Below are positions 1,839 through 3,748 of a stretch of DNA of 64,000 nucleotides, piece after piece. The notes under the pieces were generated by a model. That model ran no database searches, was not told the DNA's origin, and worked only from the letters and a program-made list of their open reading frames with translations. Position numbers and translations under genes: made by a program. The stretch lies in the NCBI RefSeq assembly GCF_013315695.1, contig NZ_CP054353.1. One strand, given 5' to 3'. Source of the stretch: Escherichia coli. GTDB lineage: Bacteria; Pseudomonadota; Gammaproteobacteria; Enterobacterales; Enterobacteriaceae. Numbering within the stretch: position 1 is the first letter of the stretch; the number at the start of each line of letters is the position of its first letter.

Positions 1839-1853
1839 ATTGTGCATTGAAGT

Positions 1854-1918
1854 GCCGGATGCTGACGCGTCTTATCCGGCCCGGGGGTAACGTGCTAATC
1901 GTAGGCCGCATCCGGCAC
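1854..1918. repeat. REP (repetitive extragenic palindrome) pair downstream of fadH
   Basis: Inverted GCCGGATGC...GCATCCGGC motifs typical of E. coli REP/BIME elements. Confidence 0.6.
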
Positions 1919-1924
1919 GTCGCG

Positions 1925-2341
1925 TTAATCAATAAACAAGGCGGGAGAAATGCCGAATCGCGTTGCCAGTTTTTTAGCGTGTTCCAGCGTTAATTTCCTC
2001 TTCCCGCTCAAAACGCGTGACACCATCGATTTACTGCCAATTTCCGGCAGATCGGAAAGGGTTAAACCATATTGATCCATAAGGGTACGAATCACAGCTT
2101 TACCGCCAGGCATGGCTTGCGCCATGGCATTAAATTCAGCAAATTCGGGCGCTGATTCTTCCCACGCGGTTATTTTGGCACACGCCAGATCCAGCAAGGG
2201 GTTTTCAGGATCGTTGAGCAGCAGATGATCTACCAGTTCCAGCGCCTGGGTGTATTGTTCCTCGTTCTGAATACCCGCCAGAAAAGGTGCCACAGCAGTT
2301 AGCTTTTCTCCTGCTTGCAAGATGTCGGCAATCGCAATCAT
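1925..2341 (-). CDS. higA: HigA antitoxin (HTH-XRE family)
   Basis: 138-aa ORF; translation recognised as HigA (YgjM). Confidence 0.85.
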   Translation of the reverse strand: MIAIADILQAGEKLTAVAPFLAGIQNEEQYTQALELVDHLLLNDPENPLLDLACAKITAWEESAPEFAEFNAMAQAMPGGKAVIRTLMDQYGLTLSDLPEIGSKSMVSRVLSGKRKLTLEHAKKLATRFGISPALFID

Positions 2342-2415
2342 TTTTTCCCCTTAGTACGATGAACGGCGGTAAAGAAATCGTATTCTTTATGCGTCATAAC
2401 TTCACGTATGTAGCA
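2338..2415 (-). pseudogene. higB: higB toxin 3' remnant (about 25 C-terminal codons only)
   Basis: Minus-strand frame reads ...CYIREVMTHKEYDFFTAVHRTKGKK-stop, with the stop overlapping the higA ATG (TCAT on plus strand); upstream sequence is unrelated and REP-containing, and there is no ORF of 60 aa or more. Confidence 0.5.
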
Positions 2416-2509
2416 TAAACGTTGAACAACGCTAAACAAGAGAATGTAGAGGATGGTGACAGGGATTTTTTGTTTTATGGAAGCGCGATTCCAGAACTGG
2501 GCAGACATT

Positions 2510-2597
2510 GCCGGATGCGACGCTTGCCGCGTCTTATCCGACCTGGGGGTAATGTGCTGAACGTATGCCAGATAAGGCGTTTACGCCTTATCTGGCA
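2510..2597. repeat. REP element cluster
   Basis: GCCGGATGCGACGCTTGCCGCGTCTTATCCGACC and CAGATAAGGCGTTTACGCCTTATCTGGCA palindromic units. Confidence 0.6.
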
Positions 2598-2611
2598 GGT
2601 AGCTGCCAATC

Positions 2612-3748
2612 TTACCGACGACGCCCCAGCTTCACTGCTTTCAGCACCACAAATTTATTATTCGTGGCGATGGTGGTGCAGTTGCCGAAAATCTTCTTCA
2701 GTTTATGGAAGTAATCCAGGTGACGGTTGGCAACGATATACAGCTCGCCGTTGATTTTCAGGCAGCGGCGGGCATGGTGGAACATCTCCCAGGCGACGTT
2801 ATCGGTCAGCGCATGTTGCTGATGAAACGGCGGGTTGCAGAGCACAGCATTAAAGCGGAAAGGCTCCACGCCGGAGAGCGCGTTGTTGATCATAAACTCG
2901 CAGCGATCCAACGCCTCTGGCATGTTGGTTTCAACGTTCAAACGGCTGGAAGCAACCGCCATCGGCGATTCATCGACAAACACCACTTTCGCCTGCGGGT
3001 TTTTATCAAGCAGCGTCAGGCCAATAACGCCATTACCGCAGCCGAGATCGACAATCTCACCCTCGAGATTCTCTGGCAGATGTTGCATAAAGAAGCGCGC
3101 GCCAATATCCAGCCCGGTGCGGGAGAAGACATTCGCATGGTTGTGGATAGTCCAGTCAGTGCCTTCCAGCTTCCAGCTAACGGTCTGCGGCGCATCGGCC
3201 AGCGGCGGCTCGTTGAAAGTGCAGTTAATCAGGCGCGCTTTCTTCCATGCCAGTGTGGTGGTGGTCGGACCGAGCACTTTTTCAAACAGTTCCAGCGTGG
3301 AGGTGTGAATGTCACGGGCTTTAGCACCGGCAATAATACGTGTATCCGGCGTGACCACTTTGCGCAGCGCACGCAGTTGTTGTTCCAGCAACGCCAGTGT
3401 TTTCGGTACTTTGATCAGTACCACGCCCGGCTGTTGCGGGTAGTCGGCGGTGCTGTCGAGAAACTTCACGCTCGATTCATCAATCCCGTTGAGGCGTAAA
3501 TTCTCGCGCGTGGCCAGTTCACTGATGTATGAGTCGCCAATGCTGTACGGCTTATGTTCCGCCAGCGCACAACTTAACGCACCAAAGGCATCATTCAGGA
3601 TCAACACCGGGCCGCGGATTTCTGTGTCGTCCAACTGTTGCAGCAAATATTCATCCGCCGCTTCCCACGCCTGTAGCGGGTTAACGTCATCCGTCGCCGG
3701 AAAACGTTGTAGTGTCAGTGAACGGAAACCGTTGTCTAAGTGGCTCAT
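2612..3748 (-). CDS. rlmG: 23S rRNA m2G1835 methyltransferase
   Basis: 378-aa ORF; translation recognised as RlmG (YgjO), with SAM-methyltransferase motif [11 protein letters not shown]. Confidence 0.9.

Follow-up and report, generated by a model that had tools for sequence, protein, structure and literature searches.

The interval between fadH and rlmG in the E. coli DNA analysed here (a window of 64 kb) very probably holds a decayed chromosomal type II toxin-antitoxin operon, higBA (ygjNM), that forms a small accessory islet at this site. The locus is an orphan (solo) antitoxin, i.e., the higA ORF is intact and no functional higB adjoins it. One 325-bp deletion took most of the toxin gene along with the only known promoter and the sites of autoregulation. 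The deletion allele is common in E. coli, has been annotated and published before, and is not peculiar to the present strain.

According to the ORF list and the gene layout, fadH ends at position 1838 (plus strand) and rlmG occupies 2612..3748 (minus strand). Between them lies higA (1925..2341, minus strand), an intact antitoxin gene encoding 138 aa, which was recognized in the ORF list and by tblastn, Pfam, PDB and PGAP. The gap between higA and rlmG spans 2342-2611 and measures 270 bp, in agreement with the size estimated in an earlier note on this DNA. The 3' remnant of higB, consisting of the last 25 codons and the stop (2338..2415, minus strand), was found by tblastn and is called as a pseudogene by PGAP at the same coordinates. 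The earlier note had suggested a TBLASTN search with HigB and a pairwise alignment to the K-12 higB-higA locus. With the 104-aa HigB taken from the K-12 genome record as query and the 64-kb window as target, the sole match was 2415..2341 on the minus strand, which encodes HigB residues 80-104 (CYIREVMTHKEYDFFTAVHRTKGKK) with 100% identity (E = 6e-14); no further HigB-like sequence was present in the window. The HigB C-terminus given in the note is an exact match to the K-12 sequence and the last 25 HigB residues do lie upstream of higA on the minus strand. Pairwise alignment to K-12 revealed one clean 325-bp gap (K-12 locus L002:2173-2497) and no complete higB ORF in the window, while in K-12 higB is a complete ORF of 315 bp at the equivalent position and is thus longer than the remnant. 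The toxin gene has therefore lost its first 79 codons while the antitoxin gene is retained, as had been proposed. No result contradicted this structural reading.

HigBA systems of the K-12 ygjNM type are recognized by several traits, of which the window retains a part. The toxin-first gene order with stop/start overlap is present: the stop of the remnant overlaps the higA ATG (ATGA at 2338-2341), as already seen in the earlier note, and the arrangement in K-12 is the same. A full-length RelE-like HigB toxin (PF09907) upstream of the antitoxin is missing, as merely residues 80-104 of 104 are encoded; the Pfam profile HigB_toxin is matched at positions 52-72 of 74 with 19.2 bits, which is under the cut-off of 27 bits. 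Judged by its sequence, the 25-codon remnant is a non-functional toxin relic. It nevertheless contains the retained ribosome-binding site of higA (AAGGGG, 6 nt, ATG).

For a finer view of the deletion a three-way alignment was made of the window, K-12 with intact higBA and the empty-site genome GN05064 (without higBA; locus L003). The alignments place the deletion junction, where GTAGC is joined to ATAAACG, at 2415..2416, its position being ambiguous by 1 bp due to a shared A. With the 325 bp, higB lost its codons 1-79 and its ribosome-binding site, and the operon lost its promoter and both operator repeats. The promoter in the segment deleted here is in K-12 strong and sigma-70-like (TTGCCA-16-TATCAT with a TG upstream), and it is overlapped by a perfect 12+12 palindrome and by a 25-nt operator-like direct repeat, both of which are deleted as well. 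For K-12 higBA a single HigA-repressed promoter was mapped upstream of higB, and no transcription start was found upstream of higA (Christensen-Dalsgaard et al., 2010, PMC2814082). A further trait of HigBA systems, a single autoregulated promoter in front of higB that carries operator palindromes for HigA, accordingly falls within the deleted 325 bp. As higB is the first gene of the operon, the same deletion took the promoter too, and since it spans the sole mapped promoter and the operators, higA has lost its promoter in addition to its toxin partner. With codons 1-79, the ribosome-binding site, the promoter and the operators missing, the locus is unable to make the toxin or to regulate itself.

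The earlier note had regarded the sequence upstream of the remnant as unrelated, and this does not hold: positions 2416-2611 are collinear with K-12 between the higBA promoter and rlmG, the REP pair included, showing a simple deletion and not a replacement. In the three-way alignment, the part at 2416..2507 is a retained distal portion of the higBA islet upstream of the former promoter; it has a homologous counterpart in K-12 but none in genomes without higBA. REP palindromes had also been described upstream of the remnant and are indeed found there as a REP/BIME pair at 2508..2600 between rlmG and the islet, detected as inverted repeat and by RNA folding. The inverted repeat at 2566-2597 has arms of 15 nt with 100% complementarity, and the pair forms two strong hairpins in the minus-strand RNA (z = -3.4), neither of which is followed by a U-tract. 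The statement that no start codon exists upstream had to be corrected, since an in-frame ATG at 2508 opens a 56-aa ORF (2338..2508, minus strand; from the ORF list, the sequence and Pfam). This ORF is a chimera created by the deletion, with 31 unrelated residues preceding the 25 residues of HigB in one reading frame. No Shine-Dalgarno sequence is recognizable upstream of the ATG at 2508 and the chimeric ORF is probably not expressed. It was considered as an alternative form of HigB and rejected, as its match to the HigB_toxin profile stays under the threshold and covers no more than the final third. A higB gene with another start codon was likewise dismissed, as there are 25 HigB residues only and the residues of the upstream in-frame ORF are unrelated. 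An error of sequencing or assembly at the junction, or an intact higB with a different start hidden here, found no support and is so improbable as to be negligible, given that 1518 independent complete genomes share the junction.

The deletion is in fact widespread within the species. Of 5426 complete E. coli genomes, 1518 (28%) contain the junction 48-mer, among them CFT073, Nissle 1917, E2348/69, O111:H8 strains and the W derivative LY180. The segment deleted in these genomes is kept in 2848 of the 5426, and in ~1060 of the 5426 fadH and rlmG are matched and higBA is absent. Junction and segment genomes add up to 4366, compared to ~4358-4363 genomes with the locus, so by these species-wide counts a handful of genomes at most carry both. 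Outside E. coli, a 22-mer across the junction was absent from the GTDB species-representative genomes of all other species. The UK blood isolate NZ_OZ547117.1 matches the window with 100% identity across 1101 bp, and PGAP labels its 78-bp remnant as 'toxin HigB, incomplete, missing N-terminus'; a partial-HigB pseudogene was also called by PGAP in all 13 other carrier loci that were opened (13/13), CFT073 among them. Orphan higA between fadH and rlmG was described earlier in UPEC CFT073 and AIEC NRG857c (Bustamante and Vidal, 2020, PMC7232551), and it is well established that chromosomal toxin-antitoxin systems of E. coli decay through deletions or nonsense mutations (Fraikin et al., 2020, PMC7167474). 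Taking together the PGAP annotation, the published orphan higA and this known decay, the finding is real but already known.

The closest relatives of the locus are accordingly well defined. K-12 higBA (ygjNM; PMC2814082; structures 5IFG, 6IRP, 6JQ4, 6KML, 6KMQ) is located at the same fadH-rlmG site and shares 98.6% identity in HigA, the last 25 HigB residues and the stop/start overlap, whereas the window lacks higB codons 1-79, the ribosome-binding site, the autoregulated promoter and the operator repeats. The orphan higA of CFT073 and NRG857c (PMC7232551) is the same allele, with identical junction and identical PGAP pseudogene call in CFT073. Nothing substantive separates the two; the window shows V53A and I81K in HigA and an extra 42-bp REP downstream of fadH. 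A further parallel is the decay of ccdO157 (Mine et al., 2009; reviewed in Fraikin et al., 2020, PMC7167474), a conserved chromosomal site that is degenerate in part of the species. In both cases inactivation begins with the toxin, and intact alleles occur side by side with degraded and empty ones, but in contrast to ccdO157 the higBA family combines a RelE-like HigB with an XRE-HTH HigA and has the toxin gene first.

For 28% of the complete E. coli genomes (1518/5426) this means that K-12 higBA is not countable as a functional toxin-antitoxin module, and where 'higBA' phenotypes are discussed for carrier strains, at most a promoterless antitoxin is involved. The locus is a clean natural case of toxin-first decay and matters little beyond correct annotation. 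With at least three allelic states within one species it could serve to test ideas on anti-addiction and on what becomes of orphan antitoxins.

The encoded HigA shows 98.6% identity to K-12 HigA (tblastn), the differences being the substitutions V53A and I81K, and it matches PDB entry 5IFG_B over its full length (E = 4e-85) as well as other solved E. coli HigA chains. An HTH_3 domain is found at residues 84-135 (Pfam, E = 1.5e-7); the N-terminal toxin-binding part and the C-terminal XRE-type HTH domain expected for HigBA systems are both present, and PGAP annotates 1925..2341 as higA. No promoter-like site was found in 1800-2800 at 9/12 matches or in the 270-bp gap at 8/12 by scans that are consensus-based, which weak or non-sigma-70 promoters could escape. 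The combination TTGTTT-16-TATGCT across the junction, noticed by eye as a possible replacement promoter, was discarded as it reaches 7/12 only and is not meaningful. A displaced HigA operator was not seen either: no operator-like palindrome was found anywhere in the window with up to 3 mismatches allowed. As no promoter-like site is left upstream of higA, any HigA would have to stem from rlmG read-through. No intrinsic terminator was detected on the minus strand between rlmG and higA, and transcription would cross from rlmG over the two REP hairpins without U-tracts into higA. The resulting HigA level is probably low. A literature search retrieved no expression data on orphan higA.

Two carrier strains show additional changes around higA. 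In YZLc23-1 (L014, ~700) the spacer that separates the ATG of higA from its Shine-Dalgarno sequence is shortened, as 1 bp is deleted from the A-run there; due to this deletion the remnant is called truncated at both ends by PGAP. In PM4-5 (L011, 1021-1648), also a deletion carrier, rlmG is truncated by an IS1A insertion, through which rlmG read-through into higA would be lost as well.

If the deletion arose once or several times was assessed by comparing window positions 2392-2439 with the loci L009, L010, L011-L013 and L019. The identical junction is present on at least three flanking haplotypes, with variable sites as near as 9 and 13 bp. The haplotype of the window has GTTGAACAACG at 9-13 bp from the junction, and 1309 genomes match the 48-mer at ≥99%. 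The second haplotype, represented by strain 1919D62 (~94 genomes), equals K-12 at all variable sites on both sides. The third, represented by the strains A28, FCI51, PM4-5, 401651 and 120899 (~115 genomes), differs by ~5-6% in the 100 bp nearest the junction and has three substitutions in the remnant. Its HigA carries the cluster I4L/A5S/D6N/K13Q, and this N-terminal cluster (L009, L011, L012, L013; codons 4-13) belongs to a diverged tract that extends from higA through the remnant into the upstream spacer. In PM4-5 and 401651 HigA shows the further substitutions A74V, Q75E and L111S. A search for the A28-type flank with an intact higB was swamped in its identity bands by short REP matches, and the one full-coverage 100% match that was sampled for this flank was the deletion allele again.

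A single old deletion followed by exchange of the flanks, in which recombination tracts would have stopped at the 325-bp heterology, is the favoured reading of these alignments. The alternative, that the same deletion arose repeatedly and independently at a hotspot and not once, would account for a junction that is shared by at least three haplotypes, one of them K-12-identical and one ~5-6% diverged, at variable sites only 9 and 13 bp away. It is nonetheless very unlikely. No direct or inverted repeats that could mediate the deletion exist at the K-12 breakpoints and the microhomology amounts to 1 bp only, so recurrence of an identical deletion lacks a mechanism that would reproduce the endpoints. 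Furthermore, the endpoints of other independent higB lesions differ, and recombination tracts that stop at this heterology would yield the same mosaic. An imperfect inverted repeat of 25 nt (1970-1994 versus 2415-2439, 76% complementary) has one arm in the 3' end of higA and a second arm that begins exactly at the junction, which is probably due to chance.

These other lesions were found in three strains. SCU-387 (L005, 958-1065) and MEW (L006, 1201-1308) carry a 194-bp internal deletion in higB that spares promoter and operators and leaves 36 codons at the start of higB, the rest being removed, and strain 142 (L018, 824-1137) has a higB of full length apart from a 1-bp frameshift; higA is intact in each case. 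Independent higB lesions beside an intact higA thus show that toxin loss recurs. MEW has an additional 29-bp deletion in the promoter region.

Loss of the antitoxin first frees the toxin and is counter-selected, while inactivation of the toxin is tolerated. As antitoxin loss would free an active toxin, the locus is read as ordinary toxin-first decay of a selfish accessory module, a route that would be tolerated, and after the loss of the toxin higA would no longer be needed for restraining its partner. In the window, higA is rather probably a slowly decaying and largely dispensable relic.

Alternatively, orphan higA, expressed by rlmG read-through, might be kept by selection, either for anti-addiction against HigB-family toxins of plasmids and phages or as an XRE-type regulator of other genes. 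This is possible but doubtful. In its favour, higA is an intact ORF of 138 codons in all 14 sampled deletion-allele loci (14/14) on at least three diverged haplotypes, and it is also kept beside the two other independent higB lesions. The preserved ribosome-binding site within the remnant and the stretch between rlmG and higA without intrinsic terminator also speak for it. Variants found only in deletion alleles comprise 11 nonsynonymous and 10 synonymous changes compared to a neutral expectation of 3.2 : 1 (binomial p = 0.015), a nonsynonymous deficit that suggests residual constraint. The remaining variants are 4 nonsynonymous and 11 synonymous. The nonsynonymous share is thus higher in the deletion-only variants, which speaks for relaxed constraint and against selection, although the difference between 11:10 and 4:11 is not significant (Fisher p = 0.18); the pattern fits a residual constraint with some relaxation. 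The sample of higA variants is small, and recombination import from higB+ alleles may account for part of the variation.

HigB-family toxins as possible targets do occur on mobile elements, in 1056 records of plasmids and 6 of phages. These homologues are, however, distant: 1045 of the 1056 plasmid matches show <60% identity, typically 33-40%, just 9 lie at 60-80% and two at ≥99%, and the phage matches are all at ≤41%. One of the two matches at ≥99%, NZ_CP141089.1, is a 4.9-Mb E. coli record with a 100% identical higB that appears to be a chromosome misfiled as plasmid, and as an apparent chromosome it is not evidence of a plasmid-borne K-12 HigB. The specificity of antitoxins is usually limited to the cognate toxin, which also argues against protection from such distant relatives. 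Support for an anti-addiction role of higA is therefore weak. Against selection for either role, the promoter and both operators are lost, with the operator-like site being absent from the window, and ~1060 genomes live without higA. An extended form of this explanation holds that the deletion allele is an old polymorphism kept beside intact and empty alleles across phylogroups, in which the promoterless higA is under purifying selection through low levels of read-through HigA that protects against HigB-family modules or regulates other genes. This reading draws on the 14 of 14 intact higA genes, the sub-neutral number of nonsynonymous changes and the junction on three diverged haplotypes, and it is unlikely.

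Finally, the borders of the islet are marked by REP elements. Next to the pair on the rlmG side, a repeat search and the alignment revealed a REP pair between fadH and higA (1849..1921), and 1863-1916 and 2525-2578 form a direct REP repeat of 54 nt with 80% identity. With direct REPs on the fadH side and on the rlmG side, the higBA islet is bracketed by REPs. In the ~1060 genomes without higBA, the fadH-side flank meets the rlmG-side REP exactly inside the common GCCGGATGC core (L003, GN05064). A join inside the shared REP core is in line with either REP-to-REP excision or an ancestral insertion site. On the fadH side, the 42 bp at 1863-1904 are absent from K-12 and form the second REP and the inverted REP pair at 1849-1921. 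SCU-387 and MEW have 48 additional bp between fadH and higA at the same spot, and the extra 42 bp in the window and 48 bp in these strains show that the REP copy number is variable there.
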